A DNA stretch of 63,924 nucleotides from a virus (taxonomy: Duplodnaviria; Caudoviricetes), in IMG/VR virus record IMGVR_UViG_3300031687_000009, positions 1-63,924 of that record. One strand, written 5' to 3'. The position numbers and the translations under genes were made by a program. This document shows, piece by piece, positions 429 to 63,833 of the stretch. The notes below the pieces were generated by a model. That model did not search any database, was not told the DNA's origin, and saw nothing but the letters and a program-made list of their open reading frames with translations. The stretch's first letter is position 1; each line of letters opens with the position of its first letter.

Positions 429-1152
429 TAAAGAAGCAATTGAGAAATTAAGAGACGACGAAAACTATTACGGCGACTTTGGTAAACAGTATCTTAGTAA
501 CAGTGATATATCTTCGTTGTTGAATAATCCGCTCGATTTCAAAAAGCCATCACCTCCAAACCCTGCGTTTATTGTTGGTGGTTATTTCCACACTACTATA
601 CTAGAGCCTGAAAAGCTTGATAAGTATAAGATAATTAAATCATCAACTAGAAATACTAAAGCTTATAAAGAGATATCTGGAGGCGATATATGTCTGCTAG
701 AACACGAGGCTGATAATATTGAGTTGATGCGTGAAAAAGTATTAGAAAACGAGTTGTTTTATGATATGATAAGAGAAGGTAACGTTGAATATGAAGTGCC
801 TGGTATTAAGACTCTAGACGGTCTTGATTGGAAAGGTAAAGCTGATATTGTTAATCATAGCCATCAACTTGTTATTGATCTTAAAACAACTAACAACATA
901 AATTCATTTGCTAGTTCAGCTTATAAGTATAATTATGACAGTCAAGCTTATATATATTCTAAGATGTTTGGATATGAGTTAATATTCATAGTTGTAGATA
1001 AGAAGACTAGACAGCTAGGATTGTTTGATTGTAGTGATCAGTTCTTACAATCAGGACAGAACAAAGTTGCTAAAGCAGTACAAGCTTATAATGAATTTTT
1101 TGTAAATGGCGAAGGAGATTTTAGCCAATATTATATCTCTAAAACACTTTAA
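421..1152 (+). CDS. PD-(D/E)XK exonuclease, RecE/exonuclease VIII (DUF3799)-like
   Basis: LSNSDI, G...H..ILEP, KGKAD, IDLKTT and Y.Y..QAY.Y motifs; adjacent to ERF. Confidence 0.8.
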   Translation: MDNKEAIEKLRDDENYYGDFGKQYLSNSDISSLLNNPLDFKKPSPPNPAFIVGGYFHTTILEPEKLDKYKIIKSSTRNTKAYKEISGGDICLLEHEADNIELMREKVLENELFYDMIREGNVEYEVPGIKTLDGLDWKGKADIVNHSHQLVIDLKTTNNINSFASSAYKYNYDSQAYIYSKMFGYELIFIVVDKKTRQLGLFDCSDQFLQSGQNKVAKAVQAYNEFFVNGEGDFSQYYISKTL

Positions 1153-1162
1153 TTTAAAACAA

Positions 1163-1483
1163 ATGGCAAGTTTAATATCAGCAAATATAGATTTAACTAA
1201 GATTGACAAGTCTAAAATATACGAAGGTAAGAAAGGTAAGTACTATCCTATTACTATAGTTATAAACGATGAGCTTGGACAGTACGGAGACTCAGGCTAT
1301 ATACAAACAGAACAAACTAAAGATGAAAGAGATGCTAAAGCACCTAAGTCGTTTTTAGGCAACTGTAAGGTAGTATGGACTAATGGGACTAATGTTAATA
1401 CAGCTCCTAAAGAAGGACAACCTCAACAGTCTAATGTTGAAACGCTACAAAGTATAGCAGCGGATCCTGATCTACCATTTTAA
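1163..1483 (+). CDS. Putative single-stranded DNA-binding protein
   Basis: Beta-rich IDLTKIDK..GKKGKY core and an acidic DPDLPF C-terminal tail typical of SSBs. The ATG at 1163 follows an A-rich leader and is preferred to 1106. Confidence 0.6.
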   Translation: MASLISANIDLTKIDKSKIYEGKKGKYYPITIVINDELGQYGDSGYIQTEQTKDERDAKAPKSFLGNCKVVWTNGTNVNTAPKEGQPQQSNVETLQSIAADPDLPF

Positions 1484-1551
1484 TGGATGATGAAGATTAC
1501 ATTAGTAGAGTTACCGACGATAACGGTAATATAACTTTAATAGAAGATTAA
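1483..1551 (+). CDS. Acidic 22-aa micro-ORF (MDDEDYISRVTDDNGNITLIED)
   Basis: Read by hand. TAATG overlap with the upstream stop; ends just before the primase ATG. Confidence 0.35.
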   Translation: MDDEDYISRVTDDNGNITLIED

Positions 1552-1552
1552 T

Positions 1553-3262
1553 ATGACAGTTAACAATACAGAGATCAACGGATTTACTATTGACCAGTTC
1601 AATCAGTATGATCTAGCGGTAGGTAAAAAAGAGGGCGTATGTCCTCTTTGCTCTGCTGATAGAAAACCTGAGAATCGTAAAGCAAAGTGTGCTATGTACG
1701 ATTGGGAACGTGGTCTTGGTACTTGTATGAATTGTGATGAAGTTTTTCAGTTGCATACGTTTAAGCGTAAAGGTGAAGCAAATAAAGTATATGTTAAACC
1801 TGAATGGAAGAACAACGTTATGCTAAGTGATAATGCTGTTAAGTGGTTTGAAGCTCGTGGAATATCACAGCGTACACTTATCAAGATGAAAATATCTGAG
1901 GCTCTAGAGTGGATGCCTCAGACATCACAGCAGGAAAATACAATACAATTTAATTATTTTATTAATAATGAACTTATAAATGTAAAGTATAGAGATGGTA
2001 GAAAGAATTTTAAATTGGTTAAAGATGCCGAAAAGGTATTCTATAATCTTGATAGTACTGTCGGCCATGACTATGTTGTTATTGTGGAAGGTGAGATTGA
2101 TGTTTTATCTTTTGTGGATGCTAAAGTCGACAGTGTTGTCAGTGTTCCAAACGGAGCTACTCTTAATCGTCTTAATCTTGATTACCTCGATAACTGCATT
2201 GAATATTTCGAAGACAAGAAAAAGATTATCATTGCAGTCGATGGAGATGAAGCCGGACAGAACTTACAACAAGAACTCATCAGACGTTTTGGAGCTGAAG
2301 TATGCTACACGGTTAGCTTCGGAGACTTCAAGGATGCTAATGAATATCTCGTCGCTCACGGCAATAGTATGCTCAAGCGCCTTATTGATACAGCTAGTCC
2401 TGTTCCTCTTGAAAACGTAGTAACCTTAAAAGATGTAAATGATGAACTACAAGAATTTATTCACGAAGGCTTTAAGCCTGGTTATCAAATCGGTCTTGAT
2501 AACTTTGATAGCATATTCTCTACTTACACGGGACAATTCATCACAGTTACAGGCGTTCCTAGCAGTGGGAAGTCTGATTTTGTTGATCGAATGGTCGTGG
2601 GATACCAAATGAAGTACGGCTGGAAAACAGCATTTGCTTCACCAGAGAACAAACCTACATTCTTACATACTCATAAGTTGATACGTAAGATAGGAGGTTG
2701 GATGCCTACTAAAGAAGATATAGGTACAGAGAAATGGGATAAAGTAACAGAAATAGTAGATAGTAACTTTTATTTTATAGAAAACGAAAGATATGATCTA
2801 GATTCTGTACTAGCTAAAGGTGCTGAGCTTGTTAAGCGTAAGGGTATTAAATGTTTAGTTATAGATCCATATAATAAAGTTAAAATGAATGGGTCTAGCG
2901 CAATGAGCATACCTGATGCAACGATGGAATACTTAACACGTATAGAAGCTTTTGCAAAGAAGTATGATGTGTTAGTTATTGTAGTAGCTCACCCAACTAA
3001 AATGTATAAGAAAGATGACGGAACAATGGATGAACCAACAATGTATTCTATTAAAGGCGGTGGTGAGTGGTATGATGCTAGCTATCATGGCCTTCTTGTT
3101 CATAGGAATTATAGTAATAAAACAGTTAAGGTTAAAGTTCTTAAAGTTAAGTTTCAGAATCTTGGCGAAAACCAAGCTGAAGCACACTTTAATTGGAACA
3201 AAGATTCGGGCGACTATATACCGCATGAACAAGAATTGAACTCAATGCCTTGGGAAGGATAG
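1553..3262 (+). CDS. DNA primase-helicase, T7 gp4/Twinkle-like
   Basis: N-terminal CPLC..CMNC Zn ribbon, TOPRIM motifs (IVEGEID, AVDGDEAG, KDANEYL), SF4 Walker A GVPSSGKS, LVIDPY and VAHPTK. Confidence 0.93.
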   Translation: MTVNNTEINGFTIDQFNQYDLAVGKKEGVCPLCSADRKPENRKAKCAMYDWERGLGTCMNCDEVFQLHTFKRKGEANKVYVKPEWKNNVMLSDNAVKWFEARGISQRTLIKMKISEALEWMPQTSQQENTIQFNYFINNELINVKYRDGRKNFKLVKDAEKVFYNLDSTVGHDYVVIVEGEIDVLSFVDAKVDSVVSVPNGATLNRLNLDYLDNCIEYFEDKKKIIIAVDGDEAGQNLQQELIRRFGAEVCYTVSFGDFKDANEYLVAHGNSMLKRLIDTASPVPLENVVTLKDVNDELQEFIHEGFKPGYQIGLDNFDSIFSTYTGQFITVTGVPSSGKSDFVDRMVVGYQMKYGWKTAFASPENKPTFLHTHKLIRKIGGWMPTKEDIGTEKWDKVTEIVDSNFYFIENERYDLDSVLAKGAELVKRKGIKCLVIDPYNKVKMNGSSAMSIPDATMEYLTRIEAFAKKYDVLVIVVAHPTKMYKKDDGTMDEPTMYSIKGGGEWYDASYHGLLVHRNYSNKTVKVKVLKVKFQNLGENQAEAHFNWNKDSGDYIPHEQELNSMPWEG

Positions 3263-3562
3263 ATGAGTGTAGGAACATTAAAAGCAAGAGAGCTTGCTAA
3301 ACGTAGAAAGTCAGGATTTCTTCTAGATGTAGAATGGGTGGCTGATACCGATCAGCAAGTTTGGTACGAGTGGGGAGTTAATAAAGGTATAATTATATCT
3401 CCAATACCTGTAACTAATAAACCTGGTAAATGGTTTGTTGGTATATCAGAGCCTGGTAAACATAAGAAAGTTTACAAATCTAAATTCCAATATGATTGGA
3501 AACAGATATGGGATGAGGTCATGAACGCTTATAAATATTATTATGATAAAGAGAAAATTTAA
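3263..3562 (+). CDS. Hypothetical protein
   Basis: 99-aa ORF abutting the helicase stop, within the operon. Confidence 0.65.
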   Translation: MSVGTLKARELAKRRKSGFLLDVEWVADTDQQVWYEWGVNKGIIISPIPVTNKPGKWFVGISEPGKHKKVYKSKFQYDWKQIWDEVMNAYKYYYDKEKI

Positions 3563-3845
3563 TTATTTAAGCATAAAAAGCTTTTTACTTTCAATAGTTA
3601 TTGTTATATTTACAGGCTTTGCATTGAGTGCTTATTCTCAAGCAGATCAAGTAATAGGTTTAAAACCAACAATTATAATAGCATGCTCTTTATTATCTAT
3701 TCTAATTAATTTAGAAGAAATAATAGAGCATACCAAGTATAGTTCTTTATATTATACTATATGTAAAACAATTGCTTTAATTTGGTATGTTTGTTTTGTT
3801 ATGATTGTATATAAATATTTTTTATTAGAATCTTATGAAGTATAA
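3543..3845 (+). CDS. Small membrane protein (about 3 TM segments)
   Basis: Three hydrophobic stretches; overlaps both neighbouring genes. Confidence 0.55.
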   Translation: MIKRKFNYLSIKSFLLSIVIVIFTGFALSAYSQADQVIGLKPTIIIACSLLSILINLEEIIEHTKYSSLYYTICKTIALIWYVCFVMIVYKYFLLESYEV

Positions 3846-4476
3846 TTTTAAAAATGCAAATCAAGCTTTTAATTATTTTTACAAAAGAATACCTAAAGAA
3901 GGTATTGATTTTGATAATACAAAAGCTCTTTTTGATGTTGGCTTTACTATTAAAGATCCACTAGATAATATCATTACAAATAAAGATCGAAACTTTAGCA
4001 TAAAATATGCTGAAGCTGAATGGAACTGGTATTTGTCTGGAGATAATAGTATTGATAAGCTTGGCCAGCTTTATGGTAAAATACCCTTGATATGGGAAAG
4101 AATGTCTATTGATCGTCATGTTAATTCTAATTATGGTTATCAATGGGAGCGCAACTACCAATTAGATTATGTAGTTGCTAAACTAAAAGACAATAGAAAC
4201 ACTAGGCATGCAGCAATAAGCATTTATGATGGTAAGGAACATAAGTTATATAGAAAAGATACTCCGTGTACTTATGCAGTTCAGTTTACTATACTTAATA
4301 ATAAGCTTAATATGTCTGTTCTGATGCGTTCTAATGACCTCTGGTTTGGCTTTTGTATTGATCAGTATTGTTTTTCATATCTACAAAAAATGGTTGCAGA
4401 TAGGCTGTCTATTGATGTTGGCACTTATTATCACTATGCACATAACTTACATCTTTATAACGATAAATTAAAATAA
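3835..4476 (+). CDS. Thymidylate-synthase-superfamily enzyme, T4 gp42 dCMP hydroxymethylase-like
   Basis: EWNWYLS, PLIW, VNSNYG, catalytic PC, and MRSNDLWFGFCIDQ with Asp at the TS Asn specificity position; C-terminal HNLHLY. Confidence 0.8.
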   Translation: MKYNFKNANQAFNYFYKRIPKEGIDFDNTKALFDVGFTIKDPLDNIITNKDRNFSIKYAEAEWNWYLSGDNSIDKLGQLYGKIPLIWERMSIDRHVNSNYGYQWERNYQLDYVVAKLKDNRNTRHAAISIYDGKEHKLYRKDTPCTYAVQFTILNNKLNMSVLMRSNDLWFGFCIDQYCFSYLQKMVADRLSIDVGTYYHYAHNLHLYNDKLK

Positions 4477-11553: not shown

Positions 11554-14500
11554 TTATTTTATATTAGATCTTTCCGCATTATTTGCTGCAATTTCCCAAG
11601 GTAATTTAGTACCACCCTCTATATGCATTTTACCTTTATATTCAATTTTACCATTTACTCTAGGATATTTTTGTTTGTTATAATAAACAAAGTTATCGTC
11701 ATAATCTAATTTTCCTGATTTAATTTCTTTTTGATGATGTTTTTCATGTTTAATTACAGCTTTTTTCTGTTCAGGTGGTAAATTAGAATCAACTTCAATT
11801 GTACCATCTTTATTAGCTCTACCAGCTACTCCTTTTGGTAAAGATTTTTTTAATGGTCCAAGATCAAGATCTAGATCTAAATCTAGATCAAGACTAAGAT
11901 CTAATGCAAATTTCTTTTTTTGATTTAAACCTAATTCCCATTTACTCCAACCTAAAGCTAGAAATAATTTTTGCCAAGCTTCAGATTCTTCATTAGCCAT
12001 AGCAGATAAATTTTGAGCTTTTCTAATAACTCTATCTAAAGGAATACCACCAAATGAAGCAGCATTACCAACAATTTCCAAAGCCTTGTTGTCAGGAGAC
12101 AGTTTAAAAGGATCATTTTTAATTTCTTTTTCATTGTATTTATATATATTTCCTATTGCAACTATGTCTTTTAACTTAGTATTAAGAGGTGGTGATATAG
12201 CTGTAGCCTCTAAAGCTATTTTATATGGATTATCAATTTTACCATACTTTTCTTGTTGCTCATTAGCTTCTGCTATAACACTATATATAGCTCCAGCAAC
12301 TGCACCAGGATTACCTAGACTTTTAGCATAAGATGTTAAAGCTCTTTCAACAGATAAAATAGTTTTTTCATCCATTAATTTTTCTTTTTCATCTTCATCA
12401 TCTTCAAATGCTACTGCAAATAAAGCAGTTTGTAAAGCATTAAAAAGCATTGCTTGACCTACGGAATAATATAAAACACTCTGCAAGTCTTGTCTAACTT
12501 TATTACCTCCGCCTTCAGCTGCTGATCTTCCAGATACTACATCTTGTAGTTTTCTTTTTACAATACGAGCATATTGAAAAGGTGTATTTGCAAAAGCGTA
12601 TATAACCTTACCAATTGTACTTGATTGTATTTCAGATATTTTAGAAGGATCAGATGACTGTTGAGATTCTTCAGCTGTTTCAATCCATTTTTGCATTGCC
12701 GCTTTTTTAGCATCAGCTTCACTCATTCCACCTTCAATTAAAGTTTTTAAAGTGTTTCTATAAAAAGCTGCACCACCTAAAGCAATAGCAAAACTATCAG
12801 ACATTCTTGTTGGTAAAAATCCAAATTTAAGTATTTTGTTTAAACCTGTTACATCACCTTCAGACATTTCATCAGCTAATACATCAAACTTAGCACCTTC
12901 TCTTCTGTTTTTTAAATAATCACTGTTCCAAAGAGTATTAAAATCTTTTTTCCAGTCACTACTAAACATTGCACTTGTTGCTTGGAATATGTTATTATTA
13001 GCTTTACCTATAAAATTTAAAGAAGATAACAACTGTAAGACAGCAGATCTAGTGTTTACAAACATAGTAGTTGCTACAGCTCTATTTATCCAATTTAAAA
13101 ACGCATTTGACTGTGCATCCGTACTTACACGGTTTCTACCAGTCTTCATTCTTTGTAATGAATTTTGTAAAGCTTGTCTAAACTTTTTACCATACAAGTT
13201 TTCTATTTCTTGCATGTTATCTTTGTTAAATATATTATCTACATTTTCAGCAAAAGTTTCTAAATGTTTAGCTCTAGTTCCAGAATTAATAGAATCGTAT
13301 ATAGATTTGTTTATAGTAGTATCATTTCTCCATGTAGATTTATATTCTATAGGAAAGTTTTGTTCAATTTGATCAGCAAGAGCTTTTAACTCAGGATCAT
13401 TTTCAACTGCTGACACCAATGCATCTATGTAACTTTGTTTTTCTATATCAACTTCTACTCCGTTTTTAATCCAATTGTAAACTTTAATAGCTTGGCCCTT
13501 ACTGTAAGGTGTACCATCTACTACTTCTTTTAAATCAGATTTAAAACTTTTCATTATTTCAGCAAATTGCTTAGTCTTAGCTAATATTTCAGCTTCGGCA
13601 GCAGCAACACCTCTTGAATAAGGTTCTAATATAGTTGATTGAAAAAACTTTTTAGCTTTTAAGCCAGCTTCTCCACCAGGCAAGAAAGCATAAAGTAATC
13701 CTTTAATGTCTTCTGCATTTGGTGGTATAAACCATCTTGATGGTTTACCTAATCTACCAGTTATAGAGTTTAGTATTTTTCTAAAGTTTCTATTTAATCC
13801 TTCGCCTTGACCTTCAGCTTTTGCTTTTTCTTTTTCAATAGCTTTATTTTGAACTTCTTCTAGTTTTTTATCTAGTTCTTCAGAAGTTTTGTTTTGGTCT
13901 TCTTCAGTATAATTATCAGATTCTTTTAAAGCTTTTATTTTTTTAAGTCTAGCGGCTTCGTTTTGTGCTGCATTTTCTTTAGCTATTAATAAAGCTTTTT
14001 CTGATGGAGTTTTGCCTATTTGTACTTCACTTGTTGTTTTAGCAACAAAATCAGACCACTCTTCAAAAGTCATGATATTTTTAACTGTTGAATAAGATTT
14101 TTTAATAGCTTCTATTAAGTTTTTACTTTCTTTATAAAACTTTTCTAAAGCTTTCAAACCTTGATATTCTGGATTAATAGAAGATCTGTATTCAGGATCA
14201 ACATTTGATCTAGATTTTTTATACCATGTTTTACCTTCTGAATCTTTTAGTTTAGAGAAATTAGACAAAGGATCGCCTGAAACAACTTCTGAAACAGCAA
14301 GATCAATCATTTGATCTAAAGTTAAATCTCCAAAGTTTTTAGTAGTAGGATCAAAGCCTAGCATGTTAGCTAACTCTGTCATATACTTGCTTATGATATC
14401 TTTTATTTGAGCAAGAGTATTTTTGTTAGTTCCTAAAGCTTTAGCACCATAATCTTCTAATATTCTAGCAAATATTTCATTTTCTAATCCAAAAGTATCT

Positions 14501-17500
14501 CCATTGTTATAGTTTTCTATTAAACCAGCGTAAGCAGGATCATTTTTTATCTTATTAAAAACAACATCAAATAATCCAGTTTCTTTAACTCTAGATATTA
14601 TATTATTCCAAACTTCTGGAGCAGAATTAAAAATAACTTGATTCCATACATGACCAGATTCATGAATAGTAGTATTTAAAGCATCTTTTCCTGTTAAATC
14701 TACAAATATTTTACTAGTACCAAGTATTTGAAAACCTAAATTGTTTTTCATGGCATTATCAGCGTCATCGCCTACAACTTCTTCCTCAGCTAATACTTCT
14801 TTTATTCTAGCTTTATCAGTTACTATTTCAAAATCTTGATCACCATTTTTATTCCAATTAGCCTCTAATATAGCGGCTAGACCTTCAGCTGCTTGATCAC
14901 CTGTTTTTTCAGAATCTGCTTTTTCGTTGTATACTTTATCTTTTGCTTTTCCAATTATTCTTTCGGTAGGATCAGCTTTTTCAGTAACAACTTTTTGTTG
15001 TGCTTTTATTAAATCAGGATTAGAATTTATACCATCTAAACCTGCTCCAAAAAATTCAGCTACAGTTTGACCATTACTTAATACTATACTGTTTGCATCT
15101 ATACCACCATTAACATTGTTAACGTTTGCATTAAAATATCTAGCCCATATACTATCAGTCAACATCCATCCTTCTGGAGTTTTGCTTTTATATGAAAAAC
15201 GTCTACCATCTGGCCCGTTTCCAGCTAGTTTATCGTCATTAACATTTAACAAAGCCCCTTGAAAATAATTTTTTTCAATTAAATTAAAATTATCATTTAC
15301 TTTTCCATTTATAGCTTGTCTGAATAAAAATTTAGCTACAGCTGAAGCTGGAAGAGTGTGTTCTTCTGTAAACAAAGCTTTACCTTTAGGATTTTTAGAA
15401 TAATCAAACATTTTACCTTTAGAAGTAAATTTAACTGGAGAAGCTAATCTCATAAAATGACCTTGCCATCCTGAAGAAGACTTTAAAAGACCACCTATTA
15501 CAGCTTTTCTTTGTGCTTGAGTTGAAGGCTTATTATTATTTTCAGGATCTTTAGCAATAAAATCCTCAAATATATTAAAAATTTGTTTTAAAGCTTTTAA
15601 TTTATTTTCTTGTTGTTTTTTAAATTCAGGGTTTTTAAAGTCATTTTCTAATTTAATTTCTCTTCTTCCATTTACAATTTTATCATAACTAGTTGGTGTA
15701 AAAAGATCTTTATATAATTCAGATTCAGCAGCGAAAGGACCATTTTCAGCTATCCATGCGTCTGCATCAGGGGCTGATTTAAAAAACACATGACCTCTAC
15801 GCGTTCTAAGTAAAGAATTTTTAAACTTACCTTTTCCGTTTTTACCATATTCTGGAGGATAAGTAGAAACTTCTTCACCTTTATTGTTTATTTTTGTAAC
15901 AGCTTCAACTTCTCCTCCATTTTTAAGTTGATAAAAAACTATTCCTCCTCTCATTACTGATGAAGGATCTGTGGTTCCGTTGAATTGTCTAAAAAAGCTG
16001 GCTGGAAGTAATTTAGTTAATCCAGTTGATTTTAATAATTTTAAAAAAGTTTGTACTCTTTCTTCGTTATTTAAATTAAAATCTTCAATGCCTTCATTTT
16101 CTAATAGTTTTTTCCAATCTAATGAATTTTCAGCAAAATCTTCTTTTGTTTTTTCTAAACTTTTTTGAAATTGTTCAAATTTAAAAGCAGCTATAGTATT
16201 TTCAAAACTTTGGTTATTTAATTTGCTTTTAGCTATAATAATAGTTTTTTCTGAACTAACATCTTTATTTGCAGCTTTATTTATTTCACTAGCTTCAATT
16301 GGATTAGCTAACAAATATTCAGCTCTAACATCTTCTGCTATTTGAGTTGACACAGCTTCCGCTAAAGCGGCTTTTCTATCGCTAATAACTGATTTTCTGC
16401 TTTTTCTATCTAATGGTATATCTTTTCCTTCATAGTAATCTACAAACTCAGATCTAGTAGGAGCAAACATTGACCATTGTTTAGATATTCCAGTTCCTTT
16501 TTGTCCAGCTTTTTGAGCTAAAAAAGCAGTTGCTAAAGGTTTATAATTTCTATTTAAATAATTAGAAAAATCTTCTTTGGTTTTTGTGTTTTTGCCAAAT
16601 TCTGCTTTTATGTCTTTTACTAATTGGCCATCATATATGCTATCTATAGCTTGTTTAGAAAGAGCTTGCCTTTTCTTAGCGGTTAATTCTTTATTTTTCT
16701 GTAATTCATTTACGGCTTTTTGTAATCCAACTGGTATAATTTTTTTAGCTTTATCAATTATAGCCATCGGAAGCTTAAGTTGATCTGCTAAAAATTTAGA
16801 ACCAATTTTTACTTCAAAGTCATTTTCTTCTTCAACTAATAAATTAGCTGCTTCTGTAGAGTTAAAATCTACATTATTATCTTGAGATAGTACTTTGGTT
16901 GCAGCTCTTTCAACTCTTTTATTTAATTGCTGAGCTATATATGCTGCTATTGGAACACCAGATTCTGGTTTATAAGTTTCTACTAATCTAGCGACACCTT
17001 CAGGGCCATATCTTAATTCACTAGCTAAAGCATCAACATCACCATCATATCGTCTAAACTGAGGCACAGAGTTCAGCTTTTTTATAGCTACACTTCTTAT
17101 TGTACCTTCTTGGGTTTCAACAATGCTATTTAAAGCCTTAACGCCATTAGCATCGTATAGCGATTGAGCTTGTTCAGATAAAACAATACTGTCTTCAGCT
17201 ACTATGCCATCTATAGTTTGTACAGCTTGCTCTGCTTTAACTATTTTTGAATTTATTTCAGATTCTAAATCCGGGTCACCATTCACTATAGCTCTATCTA
17301 AATCATTATATAAATCTACAAGTCTTAAAGATTCATCTTCTCTAAATTGTTGAGTTTTAGATTTTGGTTGTATTCTTGTTTTAGATGCGTTACTTATAGT
17401 GCTTAATTCTTCTTGTTTAGTTGTAAATTGTTCTTCATACGTTTTAACAGCTGCATTTCTTTGCTCTGTGTTTATTACACCATCAGCTAGTTTTTTATCT

Positions 17501-18933
17501 AACTCTGTAACGCCATTACTTATGATATCTACTTCATCTTGTATGACTGCAATTTGATCGATTTCTTTATCTGTTAATTTTGCTGCTTTAGCTTGAGCCT
17601 TTAAAGTAATATCAATAATTTTAGCTTCTTGTATAGCTATACCTTTTTTTATTTCTTTTTTAACCTGTGGATCTGTTGTTGTTGCTAAAGTTTTTCTTAA
17701 CTCAGCTATACTTTGTAAAGCTTGATTTTGCAATACTGTTTCAGCTGGTCCACGTAAAGCTGCTGTAGCTTTTTTAAATTTAATATTTTTTTTACTGTCT
17801 AATGATTTTGATATAGGATCATTACCTGAACCCCTCATTAATCCGCCACCTACAAAACCTTGTAAATAAGACTCTAATCCTTCTTGAGATAAAACAGCGT
17901 CAACAAAAGCTTCTGTTTTATTTTCATCTTTTGCAGAAGCTATATTTACAGCATCTAATCCTGTTTGAGCTAGTTCAGTTAATCCTTCTTTGTTTCCTGA
18001 GAGTAAAACGCTAGTCATAGTTTTTCCTAAACCAGCACCTGTTAACTTTTTAGTCATTAATCTTCCAGCGCCTTTCAACCCAGCACGCTCTAAAAGACCA
18101 CTTACAGTTCCTACAGTGGCAGCGGTTGTTATATCATCTTCACCATCTCTTATTAGATCAGATAAAGTTTTGCCTTTTTGTTTAGCAACTTCTTCATTAT
18201 AATCTATGTAAGATCTACCTATCATGTCTGGAATCAATCCTCCTCCAAGAGTAAGTGTGTTTATTGCAGCTGAAGATCCTATCGATGTTATACCATTGAC
18301 TATACCAGCGACTAATTCACCTGAACCTTTCATTATTTCACCTTTACCTAAAAGCTTTAAACCTTCCGTTATTGATCCAACCTCACCCATTTCAGCTTCT
18401 TCAAGTTTAGATTGTTGTATGGCTTCATCAAGATCTTTTTCAGAAAGTCCTTCTTTAAAAAATTCAGGAATATTTTCGTTTTTTAACCAAGATTCAACTG
18501 CTTCATCTCCAAAAATACCTCTGTATATTTTATTACTAGCAACTGTTAAATTTGGTAGAAATTGTTGAAATGAATTTGCTACATTTTTAAATATACTATT
18601 AACTATTTTATCACCAGAAGATAATTCTTTTAATTCAGGTTGTCCAGTTTCAGGGTTTATTTTAACTTGGCCTGTTGAATCATCAATAACATATTGATCA
18701 CTTAATGTTTCTTGAGTTTTAGCTTCTATCTCATCAGCTTGTCTTGCTTCTCTTTCTTCATATGTTTCGTTTCTTTCTATATCTTCTCCAAACAATTGTC
18801 CAAAGAAACCTTTAGCTGGATCTGTATTAACAGGGTTACCAAACTCATCGAGCTCTTCTTCCTCTTTGTCAGGAGTATAAAAATCATCCATGCTAGCAAC
18901 TGGAACGTTTGTGTAGTCGAATTCTTCTTCCAT
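11554..18933 (-). CDS. Giant (2459 aa) polyvalent internal virion/ejection protein with a sigma-70 region-2-like domain, a possible HNH-like domain and two zincin-like (HExxH) domains
   Basis: Position after the tail genes; motifs YKPESGVPIAAYIAQQL, EEHTLPA, TTIHESGHVW and VIKHEKHH...LPWE. Confidence 0.75.
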   Translation of the reverse strand: MEEEFDYTNVPVASMDDFYTPDKEEEELDEFGNPVNTDPAKGFFGQLFGEDIERNETYEEREARQADEIEAKTQETLSDQYVIDDSTGQVKINPETGQPELKELSSGDKIVNSIFKNVANSFQQFLPNLTVASNKIYRGIFGDEAVESWLKNENIPEFFKEGLSEKDLDEAIQQSKLEEAEMGEVGSITEGLKLLGKGEIMKGSGELVAGIVNGITSIGSSAAINTLTLGGGLIPDMIGRSYIDYNEEVAKQKGKTLSDLIRDGEDDITTAATVGTVSGLLERAGLKGAGRLMTKKLTGAGLGKTMTSVLLSGNKEGLTELAQTGLDAVNIASAKDENKTEAFVDAVLSQEGLESYLQGFVGGGLMRGSGNDPISKSLDSKKNIKFKKATAALRGPAETVLQNQALQSIAELRKTLATTTDPQVKKEIKKGIAIQEAKIIDITLKAQAKAAKLTDKEIDQIAVIQDEVDIISNGVTELDKKLADGVINTEQRNAAVKTYEEQFTTKQEELSTISNASKTRIQPKSKTQQFREDESLRLVDLYNDLDRAIVNGDPDLESEINSKIVKAEQAVQTIDGIVAEDSIVLSEQAQSLYDANGVKALNSIVETQEGTIRSVAIKKLNSVPQFRRYDGDVDALASELRYGPEGVARLVETYKPESGVPIAAYIAQQLNKRVERAATKVLSQDNNVDFNSTEAANLLVEEENDFEVKIGSKFLADQLKLPMAIIDKAKKIIPVGLQKAVNELQKNKELTAKKRQALSKQAIDSIYDGQLVKDIKAEFGKNTKTKEDFSNYLNRNYKPLATAFLAQKAGQKGTGISKQWSMFAPTRSEFVDYYEGKDIPLDRKSRKSVISDRKAALAEAVSTQIAEDVRAEYLLANPIEASEINKAANKDVSSEKTIIIAKSKLNNQSFENTIAAFKFEQFQKSLEKTKEDFAENSLDWKKLLENEGIEDFNLNNEERVQTFLKLLKSTGLTKLLPASFFRQFNGTTDPSSVMRGGIVFYQLKNGGEVEAVTKINNKGEEVSTYPPEYGKNGKGKFKNSLLRTRRGHVFFKSAPDADAWIAENGPFAAESELYKDLFTPTSYDKIVNGRREIKLENDFKNPEFKKQQENKLKALKQIFNIFEDFIAKDPENNNKPSTQAQRKAVIGGLLKSSSGWQGHFMRLASPVKFTSKGKMFDYSKNPKGKALFTEEHTLPASAVAKFLFRQAINGKVNDNFNLIEKNYFQGALLNVNDDKLAGNGPDGRRFSYKSKTPEGWMLTDSIWARYFNANVNNVNGGIDANSIVLSNGQTVAEFFGAGLDGINSNPDLIKAQQKVVTEKADPTERIIGKAKDKVYNEKADSEKTGDQAAEGLAAILEANWNKNGDQDFEIVTDKARIKEVLAEEEVVGDDADNAMKNNLGFQILGTSKIFVDLTGKDALNTTIHESGHVWNQVIFNSAPEVWNNIISRVKETGLFDVVFNKIKNDPAYAGLIENYNNGDTFGLENEIFARILEDYGAKALGTNKNTLAQIKDIISKYMTELANMLGFDPTTKNFGDLTLDQMIDLAVSEVVSGDPLSNFSKLKDSEGKTWYKKSRSNVDPEYRSSINPEYQGLKALEKFYKESKNLIEAIKKSYSTVKNIMTFEEWSDFVAKTTSEVQIGKTPSEKALLIAKENAAQNEAARLKKIKALKESDNYTEEDQNKTSEELDKKLEEVQNKAIEKEKAKAEGQGEGLNRNFRKILNSITGRLGKPSRWFIPPNAEDIKGLLYAFLPGGEAGLKAKKFFQSTILEPYSRGVAAAEAEILAKTKQFAEIMKSFKSDLKEVVDGTPYSKGQAIKVYNWIKNGVEVDIEKQSYIDALVSAVENDPELKALADQIEQNFPIEYKSTWRNDTTINKSIYDSINSGTRAKHLETFAENVDNIFNKDNMQEIENLYGKKFRQALQNSLQRMKTGRNRVSTDAQSNAFLNWINRAVATTMFVNTRSAVLQLLSSLNFIGKANNNIFQATSAMFSSDWKKDFNTLWNSDYLKNRREGAKFDVLADEMSEGDVTGLNKILKFGFLPTRMSDSFAIALGGAAFYRNTLKTLIEGGMSEADAKKAAMQKWIETAEESQQSSDPSKISEIQSSTIGKVIYAFANTPFQYARIVKRKLQDVVSGRSAAEGGGNKVRQDLQSVLYYSVGQAMLFNALQTALFAVAFEDDEDEKEKLMDEKTILSVERALTSYAKSLGNPGAVAGAIYSVIAEANEQQEKYGKIDNPYKIALEATAISPPLNTKLKDIVAIGNIYKYNEKEIKNDPFKLSPDNKALEIVGNAASFGGIPLDRVIRKAQNLSAMANEESEAWQKLFLALGWSKWELGLNQKKKFALDLSLDLDLDLDLDLGPLKKSLPKGVAGRANKDGTIEVDSNLPPEQKKAVIKHEKHHQKEIKSGKLDYDDNFVYYNKQKYPRVNGKIEYKGKMHIEGGTKLPWEIAANNAERSNIK

Positions 18934-31879: not shown

Positions 31880-34345
31880 TTATTTAGGCGAAAACCTAGA
31901 TAAATCAAATCCTCCTAAAACATCATTACCTTTTGATTCAAATGATTTTTTAGTTTTTCCTGAAGATGGCGGTCCCGTTATTGAACTTGCTGATATTTTA
32001 GCAGCCTCTCTTTCGTTAGCTCCAGATTCTTTCATGCTGGATAATTGCATGGCATTTTCATTATTAGCTTGAGCTAATTCTTTTTGAGCTCTTAATTCTA
32101 AATCTTTTAATTTAACATTAAGTTCATACTCATATTGCATTAATTCTCTTTTAGTAGAAGCTTCTACCTCTAGTTTTTTAATTTCAAATCCAACATCGGC
32201 TTGTCTATATTGTATTTTTGATTCAGTTTTAATTTGCTCTGCTTGAGCTTTAGCTTCTTCTATTTGTACTTGAGCTTGACCTTGAGCTTTGGCTTGTGCA
32301 ACACTCGCTGCTTGAGCAGTTTGTTGATCCATGCCTTGCTTTCTAATTCTTCTTATCTTTAATAATTGATTAGCTAATTTTAAATTTTTAACTTCTCTTA
32401 TATCGATAGCATCTTCTAAATTTATACTATCTCTTGACAAAGCCATTTGTATATTAGCTTCTAATAAAGATTTTTCTTCTTCATCTGGCATTAATTCTAA
32501 AAATATTCCAAAATCATGCAAATGTAAATTTTTCATTTCCTCTAAAGAACCAACTGAAAATTGGCCTAAAGCTCCTATAAAAGCTTCTTTAGTTGGATGA
32601 AATTCTAGAACATCTTTAAATCTTAAACAAATAGCCTCAGCTAAAGCTAAAGTTATATACATGCTAGAACTTAATATATGTCTAGTTGCAGTGTTGCTAT
32701 TTGCAGCTGCTAATTTTTGAACACCTACAAGCGCATTTGGATCTGGATCAGAACCGTCTCTAGCTTCATTTAATCCAGTAACATCACGCATCATCTGTAT
32801 GTATTGATTATATGCGCCAACTAAAACTTGAATTTGACCACCGCCACTTCCTGGTAATTCTTGTATAGGTACTTTACCTGGATTTGGATTACCTTCTACC
32901 GTTAAAGATCTACCTATAATAGAACCTGTTGAAAAGTACATATTAAGAGCTTCTTGAGCATTATAACTGCTTCCGTTACCTAAATCTACCTCAGCTAAAC
33001 CATCTGCATCTATAAATACACCTGAAGGTGTCATTCTTTGTATGGCTTGCTGTAGTTTTAAATGAGTTAATTGAACTAAATCAGCGTAAGGGCACATTTT
33101 AGAAACAATAGATGTTATGTTTCCTTTGTACATTCTTGGAGCTGAAACAGTATAATTCATTACAACTTTATTTGTATTAGAAGATGGACGAATCATATTC
33201 GTAGCTTTTTCCCATTTTAATAAAGTATCTGTACCTAAAACATAAGCACCTTCATACACAACTTCTCTAGCTGTAGCAACTCTTTCGAATCTTGTGCTTT
33301 TATCCTGAGGAGGATTAAATTCATCTGATTTAGCTATAGCTCTTTCTGCTCCAGTAGATGTTTCTTTTATTTTATAAACATTATTTTCCCATGTTTTCCA
33401 ATTAAAATATAAAAGTGTTACAGTGTTATTGTTATCAATATCACCTTGACCACGAGCTTGACTTGAAAAATCTGAATTATTATCAACCCAACTTGATCCT
33501 TTTCTAGTTAACTCAGACATTTCTTCGTCACTTATGCTAGGAAATTGTTTTTTTAATTCATTTACAGGCAATCTTTTAACTTCGCCAAAATAATAACAAT
33601 CTTCAAAATTAGGATCTTCAGTATAAGACCATATTAAATTAGCTGGATCTACATAATCTAATTTTATTCCATCAGTATTATTAAAGGTATTTTTAACAGC
33701 ACCTATTCCTAATACAGTTAAATCATAATCAAACCTTTTCTTTATTTGTGGAAATTTGTTTGTTAAGAAAACATTATTTATAGCTTGTTCTTCTGCTATT
33801 TCAATGCCTTGCTTATAACCAAGTTGCATGTATAACTCTAATTCCTCTGTATTTGATGGTAAATCTTCTTCGGGTACATTTCTAGCATTTACACCTAATT
33901 GAGTCTCAATGCTTTTAAGTAAACCTTGCGCATTAATATCTCTTTGAACGTCATTAACAAATTTAGTTCTTTTTCCAGTTGAAACAGGATCTTGAGCAAA
34001 AGCTTTAATATCAAACAATCTATCTTGCATTCCATTTACAACTATATCTACAAATTTAGGTATAATAGGAACTGGTTTCCAATCTAAATTTAAATAAGAA
34101 AGATCGCCATTTACAGCAAATTCATCTTTGTATTTTCTAATAGATTGCTCACCTCTAGCATATAATCTAAGTCTATGAAATTCATCTCTAGTTTGAAAAT
34201 ACATTCCTGGTCCACTGTCTCTATTGAACCACTCTTGCTCAATAGCACGAGATACTGATAAACCATATTCCCTTGACATTTTTTCTTTATCTGAGACTGA
34301 TTGACTCGGAAATTGTGTAGGAAATTGTCCTGTAGTTATTGCCAT
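31880..34345 (-). CDS. Portal protein
   Basis: 821 aa directly after TerL; LDW.PVPIIPKFVDIVVNG and RDVTG.NEARDG motifs; coiled-coil C-terminus. Confidence 0.85.
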   Translation of the reverse strand: MAITTGQFPTQFPSQSVSDKEKMSREYGLSVSRAIEQEWFNRDSGPGMYFQTRDEFHRLRLYARGEQSIRKYKDEFAVNGDLSYLNLDWKPVPIIPKFVDIVVNGMQDRLFDIKAFAQDPVSTGKRTKFVNDVQRDINAQGLLKSIETQLGVNARNVPEEDLPSNTEELELYMQLGYKQGIEIAEEQAINNVFLTNKFPQIKKRFDYDLTVLGIGAVKNTFNNTDGIKLDYVDPANLIWSYTEDPNFEDCYYFGEVKRLPVNELKKQFPSISDEEMSELTRKGSSWVDNNSDFSSQARGQGDIDNNNTVTLLYFNWKTWENNVYKIKETSTGAERAIAKSDEFNPPQDKSTRFERVATAREVVYEGAYVLGTDTLLKWEKATNMIRPSSNTNKVVMNYTVSAPRMYKGNITSIVSKMCPYADLVQLTHLKLQQAIQRMTPSGVFIDADGLAEVDLGNGSSYNAQEALNMYFSTGSIIGRSLTVEGNPNPGKVPIQELPGSGGGQIQVLVGAYNQYIQMMRDVTGLNEARDGSDPDPNALVGVQKLAAANSNTATRHILSSSMYITLALAEAICLRFKDVLEFHPTKEAFIGALGQFSVGSLEEMKNLHLHDFGIFLELMPDEEEKSLLEANIQMALSRDSINLEDAIDIREVKNLKLANQLLKIRRIRKQGMDQQTAQAASVAQAKAQGQAQVQIEEAKAQAEQIKTESKIQYRQADVGFEIKKLEVEASTKRELMQYEYELNVKLKDLELRAQKELAQANNENAMQLSSMKESGANEREAAKISASSITGPPSSGKTKKSFESKGNDVLGGFDLSRFSPK

Positions 34346-60091: not shown

Positions 60092-60104
60092 ATTAAATTA
60101 AATT

Positions 60105-60236
60105 TTATTTCTTCACACAGTTGTTGACCATCTTAGCTTTACCGCCTTTAGTCTTTTTCCCACTAGGAGATTTTTTCTTTCCAACTGCTTTATAACCTTT
60201 CCAACAACTAGGTCCTTTCTTTTTTTTAGCAGCCAT
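60105..60236 (-). CDS. 43-aa Lys-rich CWxGY-motif protein
   Basis: Read by hand: MAAKKKKGPSCWKGYKAVGKKKSPSGKKTKGGKAKMVNNCVKK. Confidence 0.65.
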   Translation of the reverse strand: MAAKKKKGPSCWKGYKAVGKKKSPSGKKTKGGKAKMVNNCVKK

Positions 60237-60239
60237 TAC

Positions 60240-60443
60240 TTAGTACATTTTATTTTTCCTAATAGGCTCAGTTGTTTTCTTTTTAGTTTTTTTAGTTGGT
60301 TTAGCAGCTAAAATACTTTTCTTAATAGCATCAGGTAAATTCTTTTGCTTACCAACTAATGCCTTTTTAGCTGGAGATTTCTTTACAGCTTTTTTCTTTA
60401 CAACTTTTTTCTTTACAACTTTTCTTTTCAATATAGGTTTCAT
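60240..60443 (-). CDS. Lys-rich, histone-H1-like small protein
   Basis: KKKVVKKKAVKKSPAKK repeats. Confidence 0.65.
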   Translation of the reverse strand: MKPILKRKVVKKKVVKKKAVKKSPAKKALVGKQKNLPDAIKKSILAAKPTKKTKKKTTEPIRKNKMY

Positions 60444-60462
60444 AATGATTATTTTTTAAATT

Positions 60463-60648
60463 TTATTCTTGACTTTTTTCCATTGCTTTTTTAGCGAGCA
60501 TCTGTGCGCCTATCTTAACTAGCATAGCTGGTATTACTTTGATTGGACTACCTGAAGCCCCACCTGTTTTTTTACTCATAGTAGTTCCGCAGTTATGTAC
60601 ACCTTTCTTTGTACCCGCGCCACCTAAATTCATTGGTCCTAATCCCAT
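60463..60648 (-). CDS. Small basic hypothetical protein
   Basis: 61 aa, in the operon. Confidence 0.55.
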   Translation of the reverse strand: MGLGPMNLGGAGTKKGVHNCGTTMSKKTGGASGSPIKVIPAMLVKIGAQMLAKKAMEKSQE

Positions 60649-60649
60649 G

Positions 60650-60871
60650 TTATCTTTTTTTATCTTTTTTAATTTTAGCTGCTTTAGCCTTAGCGTTAGC
60701 TTTTAAATACGCTGCTCTTACAGCAGCCTTTCTCTCTGACTCTCTAATGGCAGCTTTCTGTAGTTGAGATAGTTTACCAGTCTTTTCTCTTTTCTGCGCC
60801 TTCTTCAATGACCTAGCATTGTCCTTGTCACTCGCATAGAGATTCTTATTCTTAGGTTTTCTTCTTACCAT
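60650..60871 (-). CDS. Lys/Ala-rich small protein
   Basis: 73 aa, highly basic. Confidence 0.6.
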   Translation of the reverse strand: MVRRKPKNKNLYASDKDNARSLKKAQKREKTGKLSQLQKAAIRESERKAAVRAAYLKANAKAKAAKIKKDKKR

Positions 60872-60873
60872 AG

Positions 60874-60993
60874 CTACTTCTTGGTATGGCTGTACCCTTT
60901 CTTCTTCAGGGCCAGATGGTCCTTCATAGTCTTAGCAGTTTTTACCAAGCCCGTCTTGCTGTACATCTTATGTACCTTGAATGCTTTTGCCAT
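60874..60993 (-). CDS. 39-aa basic protein (FKVHKMY...DHL.LKKKGY.H), first gene of the leftward block
   Basis: Read by hand; A-rich leader. Confidence 0.6.
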   Translation of the reverse strand: MAKAFKVHKMYSKTGLVKTAKTMKDHLALKKKGYSHTKK

Positions 60994-61503
60994 TTGTTAA
61001 TGTTTTAAATATAGGAGTATTGTGTAATATATATGTATCTAGTAATCAGATGATTAGAAAAGTCATATCTTATTATGCCCCCATATCAATAGTATATTGT
61101 TGATTTCATTGCGTATTTGACAGATAACATACAATTCTATTATCGTATTGACAATCGTATGTCAATGTGTCATGTATTATTCATTGATATCATCCAATCA
61201 TTATCATATTATCATTATATAGCTATATCGTTATGTTATTATCATATATGTATACATATCGTTAAGACATTGATATGTATTGTATTGTATATGTCATTGT
61301 GTCATAGTTATATTAATATAATATAGTATTTGGTTATGACATAGTGTCATGATATATATATAGTTATATGACATTGTGTCATATGATTGATGTCATTATC
61401 ATATTGTCGATATATCTCATTATATCTATGAGATTATTATATATATAGTATTATAGTGCAATATATTCAAAAAGGGACATTTTATATATATGTTATAATA
61501 AAG
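60994..61503. repeat. Non-coding AT-rich junction with TGTCAT/ATGACA/TATCAT repeats (candidate genome terminus or origin)
   Basis: 15-mers at 61159, 61291, 61336 and 61368 (ATG[AT]CA-N3-TGTCAT) plus many TATCAT/TTGACA variants; lies between divergent gene blocks. Confidence 0.65.
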
Positions 61504-61537
61504 TACGTTACAAAGTGTATATTAATGTGATAATATA
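61504..61537 (+). promoter_or_regulatory. Early promoter motif, copy 1
   Basis: TACGTTACAA-N12-TGTGATAATATA, 24 nt upstream of ATG 61562. Confidence 0.8.
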
Positions 61538-61561
61538 TATGAATATAATAATATAAATACT

Positions 61562-61804
61562 ATGAAATACAATAAAATATATAATTTAATAAAAAATGAC
61601 TGTGAAGAATTATATCACGTGAATGATTGTGAAAACTTTCTAGAAGAAAATGAATTAGATTTAAATTGGTTTTCAAAAAATGAATATATAATATTCTCTA
61701 ATATATGTACAAATTATAATAATGTTATAAAAACATTAAACAATAATAAAATTAAATTTAATGAATATGAAGATTATTTAAATTTAAAATATATAATTGT
61801 ATAA
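61562..61804 (+). CDS. Early hypothetical protein
   Basis: 80 aa, downstream of motif copy 1. Confidence 0.65.
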   Translation: MKYNKIYNLIKNDCEELYHVNDCENFLEENELDLNWFSKNEYIIFSNICTNYNNVIKTLNNNKIKFNEYEDYLNLKYIIV

Positions 61805-61806
61805 AG

Positions 61807-61840
61807 TACGTTACAACTCACATATAAATGTGATAATATA
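61807..61840 (+). promoter_or_regulatory. Early promoter motif, copy 2
   Basis: Identical boxes with an N12 spacer, upstream of ATG 61863. Confidence 0.8.
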
Positions 61841-61862
61841 AATGAATATAAAAATAATATAA

Positions 61863-62066
61863 ATGCAAAAACTTAAAACAAATCACTACAAATCACAATT
61901 GATTTTCACTAAAAAACTAACTAAAAATAATATTTCTTATTACGGTTTTAAATTAAATGAATTAATAGATTTTAAATTATACAAATTAGATTATGACTTT
62001 CAATTTAAAGGTTTAACATTTATAAGTGATGAAAAATTAAGCGAAAGTTTATATATAAAAAGATAA
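61863..62066 (+). CDS. Early hypothetical protein
   Basis: 67 aa, downstream of motif copy 2. Confidence 0.65.
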   Translation: MQKLKTNHYKSQLIFTKKLTKNNISYYGFKLNELIDFKLYKLDYDFQFKGLTFISDEKLSESLYIKR

Positions 62067-62074
62067 TAATAAAA

Positions 62075-62108
62075 TACGTTACAAATCATATTAATGTGTG
62101 ATAATATA
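62075..62108 (+). promoter_or_regulatory. Early promoter motif, copy 3
   Basis: Identical boxes with an N12 spacer, upstream of ATG 62132. Confidence 0.8.
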
Positions 62109-62131
62109 ATGTAAGTAAAAATAATAATAAT

Positions 62132-62272
62132 ATGATAGTAACAGTAAAAAGTAAAGATAATTATAAAATAGATGTGACGAGATTATATCTTCAAGCATTA
62201 GAGAAAACTATAAGTGTAGAAGACTACAAAAAAGAATTAGATTTAATAACAAGTAATAATAAAAATATATAA
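62132..62272 (+). CDS. 46-aa early hypothetical protein
   Basis: Read by hand (MIVTVKSKDNYKIDVTRLY...); downstream of motif copy 3. Confidence 0.6.
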   Translation: MIVTVKSKDNYKIDVTRLYLQALEKTISVEDYKKELDLITSNNKNI

Positions 62273-62273
62273 T

Positions 62274-62507
62274 ATGAATGATATAAAAAATGTAAAGCGC
62301 TTTGTGATAAGTGTAAAAGGTATAGAAAATAAACAAGTATGTGTGTTTATAAATAAAAAAGGTGTTGAGTATAAGTACGATCAAAGTGTAGTATTCAATC
62401 AATTAAAAGAAAAGTTTGAAAAAATGAATTGTTGGACAAAGTATAAAACTTATACTAATACAAATAACTTACCAACTTTCGTTAAAGCTTTAAATAGCTT
62501 AGTATAA
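62274..62507 (+). CDS. Early hypothetical protein
   Basis: 77 aa, starting immediately after the previous stop. Confidence 0.65.
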   Translation: MNDIKNVKRFVISVKGIENKQVCVFINKKGVEYKYDQSVVFNQLKEKFEKMNCWTKYKTYTNTNNLPTFVKALNSLV

Positions 62508-62557
62508 TAAAAGAATAAGGTGTTGAAGTGTGTTCTTTCCTTAAACGAACAGACAAT

Positions 62558-62631
62558 TGAGTGAACGGTTAGCAAGGTTAAATTCCTTAGTTAAATGGGA
62601 AATAAAGGTTCGATTCCTTTCCGCTCTACTA
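62558..62631 (+). tRNA. Degenerate tRNA-like element (pseudo-tRNA)
   Basis: Perfect T arm AAAGG-TTCGATT-CCTTT; imperfect acceptor TGAGTGA/CCGCTCT; GG-containing D-like loop; tRNA length; ends in A-CTA rather than CCA. Confidence 0.4.
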
Positions 62632-62641
62632 AATAATAAAT

Positions 62642-63775: not shown

Positions 63776-63777
63776 AA

Positions 63778-63811
63778 TACGTTACAAAACAAAATAGTTT
63801 GTGATAATATA
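63778..63811 (+). promoter_or_regulatory. Early promoter motif, copy 4
   Basis: Identical boxes with an N12 spacer, upstream of ATG 63834. Confidence 0.8.
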
Positions 63812-63833
63812 TATGTAACAAATAAATAATAAT

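Follow-up and report, generated by a model that had tools for sequence, protein, structure and literature searches.

A sigma region-2-like domain in a giant virion-block protein of a probable Flavobacteriaceae phage, and its possible role at phage promoter-like sites

The virus record IMGVR_UViG_3300031687_000009, analysed here over its entire length of 63,924 bp (referred to below as the window; complete or nearly so, CheckV 98%), encodes a giant protein, designated P0001, whose residues ~580-686 are very probably a divergent, genuine homologue of sigma2, a domain of the sigma-70 family. A sequence-only reading of this DNA had suggested that a virion cargo protein contains a sigma-70 region-2-like domain, and the predicted fold, the profile register and a language-model search of the ESM-Atlas all agree with the presence of such a domain. 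It is conceivable, if on balance doubtful, that the domain is an injected, ready-made promoter-specificity module that seizes the host core polymerase as the DNA enters and guides it to promoters of a class private to the phage.

Predicted fold and sequence of the sigma2-like domain

The fold was predicted with AlphaFold2 (AF2) from A2, a 23-sequence alignment of diverse family members, and the resulting model has a mean predicted local distance difference test score (pLDDT) of 80, with blocks of 95-98 over the domain. A second AF2 model covers residues 575-880 and is based on an alignment of whole short family members; in both, pLDDT is mostly 86-98 over the sigma2-like part, and the helices of regions 1.2, 2.1, 2.2 and 2.3-2.4 follow each other in canonical order. 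A Foldseek search against the PDB listed 49 rows, all of which are sigma-factor entries (best E 6.5e-3), and VIA-align, applied to the Foldseek candidates, returned 50 of 50 rows from sigma entries, with Z 9.4 and a root-mean-square deviation (rmsd) of 2.6 Å over 90 residues against E. coli sigma70 residues 110-447. As a control independent of Foldseek, the model was aligned to all 48,161 PDB representative chains. Going by the titles of the entries, the chains at ranks 1-24 are all sigmas, either alone or as the listed chain of a complex: SigB scores best (Z 9.2), chain F of the T4 gp45/gp55 complex reaches Z 8.3, and an RpoS fragment has Z 7.9; the chain at rank 25 is unnamed, and the first clearly unrelated row is SipA at rank 26 (Z 6.2). 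The comparison of an AlphaFold model of residues ~590-880 with sigma folds had been suggested in the sequence-only reading, and the model of residues 575-880 indeed matches sigma2, with sigma entries at ranks 1-18 and no match to sigma3 or sigma4. In the viral structure library BFVD, the named rows are all, save one, phage sigma factors or 'RNA polymerase subunit'.

Sequence comparisons point to the same domain. A phmmer search of residues 560-800 against PDB sequences gave six matches, the top four of which are RpoS region 2 (E 0.39-0.54), and the RpoS alignment obtained is identical to the one with sigma region 2 that had been made by eye. The A2 profile, searched against the same sequences, gave three matches, two of them to sigma factors (SigE N-terminal domain, E 0.16; pro-SigK, E 0.55), while hhalign of A2 against five E. 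coli sigmas placed query positions 27-88 on RpoD 373-433, i.e., regions 2.1-2.3 (P 3.8e-4, probability 36%). In this register, the counterparts of RpoD D403, G408, G411, F419 (as Y), G424 and Y430 are conserved in the family; in RpoD, the aromatic residues Y430, W433 and W434 of region 2.3 act in melting of the -10 element. The tyrosine aligned with Y430 is present in 21 of the 23 A2 sequences, the remaining two having F and H, and in the domain alignments conservation within the family is highest in the blocks that correspond to regions 2.2 and 2.3-2.4. Furthermore, a family hidden Markov model (HMM) matched RpoS (9.7 bits, residues 115-152), FliA (7.9 bits) and RpoH (7.7 bits) in their sigma2 regions, and these real sequences exceed all of 400 shuffles, the best of which reached 2.3, 4.3 and 3.9 bits, respectively. 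Among the 30 nearest named clusters of the Atlas search, 24 carry Sigma70_r2 and the other six are named sigma factor.

The giant protein, its family and its genomic position

P0001 and the parts recognized in it, together with the muzzle-like gene of the same block, are as follows:

11554..18933, minus strand: giant ORF (open reading frame) P0001, 2459 aa, the largest ORF and the last-but-one gene at the end of the virion block
16876..17196, minus strand: sigma2-like domain (regions 1.2-2.4), P0001 residues ~580-686
16801..16875, minus strand: acidic disordered linker, residues ~687-711; pLDDT below 50 in both models, acidic stretch in the alignment
16306..16800, minus strand: all-helical domain that includes FLADQLKLP, residues ~712-876; pLDDT ~80-85 (AF2)
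14650..14664, minus strand: HExxH motif 1, zincin-like, residue 1424
11908..13797, minus strand: conserved C-terminal module, residues 1713-2342; no Pfam family
11734..11748, minus strand: HExxH motif 2, residue 2396, in a small C-terminal domain; conserved in the relative P0006
22389-26459, minus-strand block: muzzle-like gene, 1356 aa, with a weak crAss muzzle C-terminal match

The peptide from which the domain had originally been proposed (GVKALNSIVE...) corresponds to P0001 residues 597-680, and the interval then assigned to it, 16740-17150, to residues 595-731; no other ORF of at least 80 aa overlaps this interval. Searches of whole P0001 and of residues 560-800 with PHROGs, Pfam and NCBIfam returned noise and no sigma match, the best of the noise being PAP1 (E 0.085), a phosphatase (E 0.013) and SPP1 gp7 (MuF-like; E 0.21), and a phmmer search of whole P0001 against PDB sequences gave no match at E up to 1. 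The possibility that P0001 is a crAss-like virion RNA polymerase was dropped, since it has neither a catalytic motif nor a PDB match; DxDxD strings occur in it solely in a lineage-specific, non-conserved insert and in a D-L repeat. The latter consists of D-L dipeptides at 11860-11910 (residues 2343-2358), between the C-terminal module and the terminal domain with the second HExxH, and in P0006 the corresponding place is taken by a longer repeat rich in D, F and T.

The string FLADQLKLP had been likened to the region-3 helix-turn-helix, a resemblance that is not supported, as it lies in a separate helical domain without a match to sigma3 or sigma4. This domain of 165 residues is weakly conserved across the family, and its best structural matches are weak and mixed (Z at most 6.4: the PNPase helical domain, transporters and designed repeats); neither sigma3 nor sigma4 is found among the structural matches of residues 712-876, for which the Atlas search also gave no usable match. 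A PF04545 (Sigma70_r4) search found no match in the genome, with the limit that a very divergent version could escape it. As no sigma3 or sigma4 was found, the domain is taken to be a sigma2-only module, as in T4 gp55. A separate sigma factor was not found in the genome by the PF04542 (six-frame) and PF04545 searches, nor was a phage RNA polymerase found by Pfam scans of P0001 and 30 other larger ORFs. The PF00940 genome search gave no match, but its control matched in no genome either.

P0001 belongs to a large protein family. A two-sequence profile searched against 1.84 billion representatives retrieved 307 clusters at E at most 1e-3, of which 137 at E at most 1e-30; these are mostly 2000-3300 aa in length, unannotated, and derived from metagenomes only, and 99 of 156 proteins with the domain have at least 1900 aa. 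Relatives are encoded on 200 viral contigs, several of which belong to records with a length of 58-71 kb and a completeness of 89-100%. The best conserved block of a 17-protein alignment is the ~630-residue C-terminal module, which shows 31% identity over 678 columns with the distant homologue P0007. In 17 full-length members Pfam detects DUF5763 in three, 5'-nucleotidase in one, and otherwise nothing. In 86 of 98 long members, the 400 aa that precede the sigma2-like domain contain an HExxH motif; P0001 differs in that its motifs are at residues 1424 and 2396, the zincin motif thus being ~740 residues from the domain. Of note, a DFDDT motif of the HAD-phosphatase type is present between the sigma2-like and C-terminal modules in 55 of the 98 long members and not in P0001. 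This motif was considered as a polymerase motif and rejected, as it reads as a HAD phosphatase motif and P0001 is without it.

The minus-strand virion block of the window contains the portal gene (31880-34345, P22_portal), several genes that match PHROG 'virion structural protein' families and the muzzle-like gene, and P0001 lies downstream of all of these, in the same position as the giant genes of phi38:1 (Cellulophaga), Gundel_1 (Tenacibaculum) and Panino (Maribacter). The gene order of these three isolated phages likewise ends in a giant gene, of 1691 aa, 2482 aa and 1829 aa, respectively, which is annotated as a structural protein in phi38:1 and Gundel_1 and as a tRNA methyltransferase in Panino; family members thus occupy the position of the giant 'structural protein' gene of isolated relatives. 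A marginal family-profile match (4.6 bits, one target) was seen in phi38:1 gp101 (L006 20710-25785) at residues 868-938, around SGVPL..FI, and gp101 shares 43% identity with P0001 over the first 35 residues (E 0.023). This protein, perhaps a degenerate relative, is not counted here as a family member. Among isolated phages, 87 records have a match to the muzzle-like protein (Flavobacterium 68, Cellulophaga 15, Tenacibaculum 2, Maribacter 1, other 1), and the host of the window phage is therefore probably a member of the Flavobacteriaceae. The plus-strand unit of the window holds small ORFs at 61.5-63.9 kb and, at the opposite record end, genes for a nuclease, a primase-helicase, thymidylate synthase, MazG and ribonucleotide reductase.

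Promoter-like sites in the window and in relatives

Four promoters had been claimed at 61504-63811, and four exact bipartite promoter-like sites are indeed found there. The string TACGTTACAA has four exact copies in the window, all on the plus strand, each followed after exactly 12 nt by TGTGATAATATA. A consensus scanner describes all four as GTTACA-N16-GATAAT and finds them to be the only sites of the region with a TG extension, and at each of them an ATG-started small ORF begins 31-33 nt after the start of GATAAT:

61504..61537, plus strand: promoter-like site 1, TACGTTACAA-N12-TGTGATAATATA; ORF start at 61562
61807..61840, plus strand: promoter-like site 2, TACGTTACAA-N12-TGTGATAATATA; ORF start at 61863
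62075..62108, plus strand: promoter-like site 3, TACGTTACAA-N12-TGTGATAATATA; ORF start at 62132
63778..63811, plus strand: promoter-like site 4, TACGTTACAA-N12-TGTGATAATATA; ORF start at 63834, the ORF running off the record

A related three-block motif, TTACAGAC / AATACGA / N8-9 / KGATAATATAwATG, forms same-strand clusters in seven of nine domain-bearing relatives whose sequence was read (G002, 4 copies; G003, 5; G004, 6; G005, 4; G006, 4; G011, 13; G014, 11), the other two, G001 and G012, having no copies. For a further six relatives the last block of the motif was assessed by pattern counts only, which gave 5 same-strand copies in G009, 3-4 in G013, and no cluster in G007, G008, G010 and G015, three of these four being at most 92% complete. 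The shared element emerged from k-mer counting, the GGATAATATA pattern alone missing the TGATAATAT variant. A search for the exact bipartite motif of the window with up to three mismatches in five distant relatives gave one match, with three mismatches, and says nothing either way.

With the window counted, clusters of the GATAATAT type occur in 10 of 16 domain-bearing genomes, as against none of three isolated relatives without a clear domain (phi38:1 read; phi38:1, Panino and Gundel_1 counted). Co-occurrence of domain and promoter motif across related genomes had been put forward in the sequence-only reading as a check; clusters accompany the domain in the ten genomes, and they are missing or not seen in the other six domain-bearing genomes. 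At these numbers the association is suggestive, not significant. Wherever it occurs, the motif is located upstream of the small genes with which the opposite transcription unit begins, and no copy precedes the virion genes. In addition, the base preceding GATAATAT varies with the region-2.4-like helix, being G in six of six relatives with RAIEA[SA] (RTIEAA in G002) and T in all three RAIAAS relatives that have the motif.

Other repeats were noted in the same genomes. The record of relative G005 (L088, L091), which is complete and has terminal repeats, carries GGCAACGTCGGGAT(T/C)GGGA in at least 12 copies on one strand near both of its ends (~970-4090 and 64000-64980); they are additional and unrelated to its four GATAATAT-type sites at 56-60.4 kb. 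The element GTGTATAGCA is repeated in G001, G011, G012 and G014 (L092-L095, L111-L122), with 4 to 15 copies per genome of an 8-nt core in G001, G012 and G014 and nine copies of a 10-mer in G011, and at two G014 sites it stands directly 5' of the TTACAG block. In the window itself, an AT-rich gap at 61120-61450 separates the divergent transcription units and holds several inverted-repeat units, ATGACA-nn-GTGTCAT, along with repeated TCATTATCATATT strings, an arrangement reminiscent of operators or an origin. At 60100-61000, the minus-strand unit opens with short, very lysine-rich ORFs with repeated K-K-x-V-V-K-K units, which may encode small DNA-binding proteins. A non-coding stretch between small ORFs at 62510-62635 carries a tRNA T-arm-like GGTTCGATTCC string, on which ARAGORN and Rfam are silent; neither ARAGORN on the window nor Rfam on 60900-63924 reported anything. 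Finally, tandem 12-24 nt repeats at 63414-63506, within a 194-aa ORF (62982-63566), encode G-Y-x-x-G units that match Pfam Yae1_N.

Proposed mechanism, alternatives and relation to known systems

It is proposed that P0001 would be an internal virion protein, of the ejection or cargo type, of a ~64-kb podophage of Flavobacteriaceae-type hosts, and that it would enter the cell together with the phage DNA. Its sigma2 module would then dock on the host core polymerase and, alone or with the adjoining helical domain, steer it to the phage's own promoter class, in which a -10-like GATAATAT block is combined with phage-specific upstream blocks before the small genes at one genome end. If P0001 enters with the DNA, the first transcripts could be made without prior phage protein synthesis and without a phage polymerase. 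The position of the gene predicts late synthesis and packaging of its product, and the sites precede early-type small genes; the simplest reading would therefore be delivery with the DNA and use at time zero. In bacterial sigmas, sigma2 binds the clamp helices of beta-prime and, once bound, recognizes the non-template strand of the -10 element via A at -11 and T at -7 and melts this element, and the sigma2-only T4 gp55 can direct the host core enzyme to a -10-only promoter; in the GATAAT block, the second position is likewise A and the last one T.

The steps of this scheme are not equally probable. We infer injection of P0001 from gene position and from the isolated relatives, and delivery from the virion appears fairly probable on these grounds. 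Core binding and promoter specificity are properties that we infer for the domain, and a role as specificity factor for GATAATAT-type promoters is put forward tentatively. The whole chain, i.e., a virion-delivered sigma2 domain that directs host polymerase to phage promoters, is likewise possible rather than probable. A complex prediction from the domain alignment and residues 1-420 of RPOC_FLAJ1 (Swiss-Prot) scored 0.04 and 0.01 and gives no verdict.

Several observations weigh against the scheme. With regard to the domain itself, PF04542 (Sigma70_r2) gave no match at E up to 10 in P0001, in the six-frame translated genome or in the 23 family members, the six-frame search having matched in 11 of 14 control genomes; matches to single sigmas have weak E-values throughout (0.16-0.5), the hhalign probability is just 36%, and RpoD and RpoE do not rise above their own shuffles with the family HMM. 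The Z of ~9 lies under the value of ~13 below which, by the tool's own caution, helical folds may match by chance, so that the structural case depends on the uniform identity of the top matches and their agreement with the sequence register. Where RpoD has W433 and W434, the family consensus has K and F, and P0001 has Q at both positions; sigmas of the extracytoplasmic function (ECF) group are likewise without these tryptophans. With regard to delivery, the virion location is deduced solely from synteny and from labels assigned by others, and no isolated phage with the domain was found among 50,697 records by megablast and tblastn, including tblastn with the short member P0030. As for the promoters, the motif is missing or not seen in six of 16 domain-bearing genomes (three of them at most 92% complete), the covariation of helix residue and base may be a single inherited change because only two clades are involved, and, as no sigma3 or sigma4 was found, the upstream promoter blocks are left without an identified reader. 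Moreover, the Bacteroidota housekeeping -7 element is TAnnTTTG, which the TATAwATG of the motif partly resembles, so that host holoenzyme might read the sites unaided.

The main rival explanation is that the domain is a docking module without promoter specificity, which anchors the giant protein to the beta-prime clamp helices and thereby either displaces host sigma (shut-off) or places the neighbouring effector domains, zincin or otherwise, at the polymerase; the GATAATAT sites would in that case be read by host holoenzyme or another factor. The invariance and covariation of the region-2.3/2.4-like helix count against this explanation: in bacterial sigmas this helix is not known to play a part in core docking, and yet in the domain alignments it is the most invariant block of the family and, in its region-2.4-like part, co-varies with the base before GATAATAT. 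The adjacency of the zincin motif favours it, as an HExxH so regularly placed upstream of the domain in the long members suggests a functional pair, although in P0001 itself the two are far apart. Docking would also be compatible with the lack of a detected sigma3 or sigma4 and with the absence of the RpoD melting tryptophans from the family, and injected modifiers of host polymerase are known, e.g., T4 Alt (PMC5512222). Taken together, we regard docking alone as rather unlikely.

An improbable alternative is that the sigma2 fold has been reused away from RNA polymerase, for instance to hold single-stranded or end DNA in the capsid, or to serve in the ejection apparatus. The domain sits deep inside a protein of 2459 aa, from which its release, perhaps by the zincin domains as the sequence-only reading suggested, is conjectural, and the residues that contact core in RpoD region 2.2 are kept only partly, as such reuse would allow; its language-model and structural neighbours are nevertheless almost all working sigma factors, and the phage has no other identified means of marking its own promoter class. 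Still less probable is a sigma that acts from newly made protein as a late or middle factor, perhaps after cleavage, instead of from the infecting particle. All characterized phage sigmas are reported to be made during infection, in keeping with two reviews (PMC7824862, PMC13282480), but the P0001 gene is at the far end of the virion block, so that its product should come late, and the motif is found only before the small genes that open the opposite unit. Chance resemblance of a generic helical bundle to sigma2 is very improbable: the missing Pfam match, the weak E-values and a Z below the caution line for helical folds would fit it, and against it four kinds of evidence converge on one family and one register, with ranks 1-24 of 48,161 chains coming from sigma entries.

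The domain resembles RpoD, RpoS and S. aureus SigB in helix order and packing (Z 9.2-9.4, rmsd 2.6 Å over 87-90 residues), and RpoD also in sequence, regions 2.1-2.3 being in register with an Asp, two Gly, an aromatic residue and a Tyr aligned to D403, G408, G411, F419 and Y430. It differs from bacterial sigmas in falling below the Pfam threshold, in its location inside a 2459-aa protein, in having no detected sigma3 or sigma4, and in that the equivalents of W433 and W434 are not Trp. T4 gp55 (chain F of 7d7c/7d7d, identified as gp55 from the entry titles) is essentially sigma2-only and ranks second of 48,161 chains (Z 8.3, rmsd 2.6 Å over 91 residues). The only promoter element that gp55 recognizes is -10-like, TATAAATA, and the TATAAATG string present in many motif copies of the relatives is similar to it. 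In contrast to the phage domain, which is internal to a giant virion-block protein, gp55 is a small free protein that is synthesized in the infected cell and acts together with gp33 and the gp45 clamp (PMC6024815).

With the virion RNA polymerases of N4, phiKZ and phi14:2 (gp66), P0001 shares that it is a giant virion-block product which would start early transcription at time zero, from promoters specific to the phage. The gp66 protein of the crAss-like phage phi14:2 is reportedly a virion RNA polymerase delivered with the DNA. The N4 enzyme is delivered with the DNA and uses phage-specific early promoters (PMC13434306, PMC4496689), and delivery with the DNA is also described for that of phiKZ (PMC13282480). 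P0001 differs from these in being without a polymerase catalytic domain, so that the delivered item would be a specificity module for the host enzyme. A further parallel is found in the polyvalent proteins, very large multi-domain proteins with zincin-like HExxH motifs, which according to their survey are presumed to accompany the DNA into the cell and to target the host as they enter (Iyer et al. 2017, PMC5512222). P0001, a predicted virion protein, is similar in size, in its two HExxH motifs and in its virion-block position, and differs in that Pfam detects none of the named domains in it, the SPP1 gp7/MuF model reaching E 0.21.

The earlier statement that no characterized example of an injected sigma exists is in agreement with full-text literature searches, in which no injected, packaged or virion sigma factor was found described. 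The word 'sigma' occurs 0 times in the main text of the polyvalent-protein survey (PMC5512222). In the portions of the jumbo-phage reviews available (PMC7824862, PMC13282480), phage sigmas are encoded factors that recruit or associate with host polymerase, and the co-injected items are polymerase or modifying enzymes, with no packaged or injected sigma mentioned in those portions. Phage sigma factors and virion-delivered polymerases are already textbook matter; what appears to be new here, as judged from these searches, is a sigma2 domain within a giant cargo-type protein of the virion block.

If the proposal is true, it would represent a third way to start a phage infection, beside the use of host holoenzyme and the injection of a whole polymerase, and one used by a large, so far uncultured group of ~60-70 kb marine phages that probably infect Flavobacteriaceae. 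It would explain how polymerase-less phages have a private early promoter class on hosts with unusual housekeeping promoters, and would provide a minimal natural sigma2-only system with matched promoters, in which the E/A change in the region-2.4-like helix that tracks G/T before GATAAT would be a readable specificity code. Furthermore, it would assign a function to more than 300 protein clusters that are blank in Pfam, PHROGs and NCBIfam.

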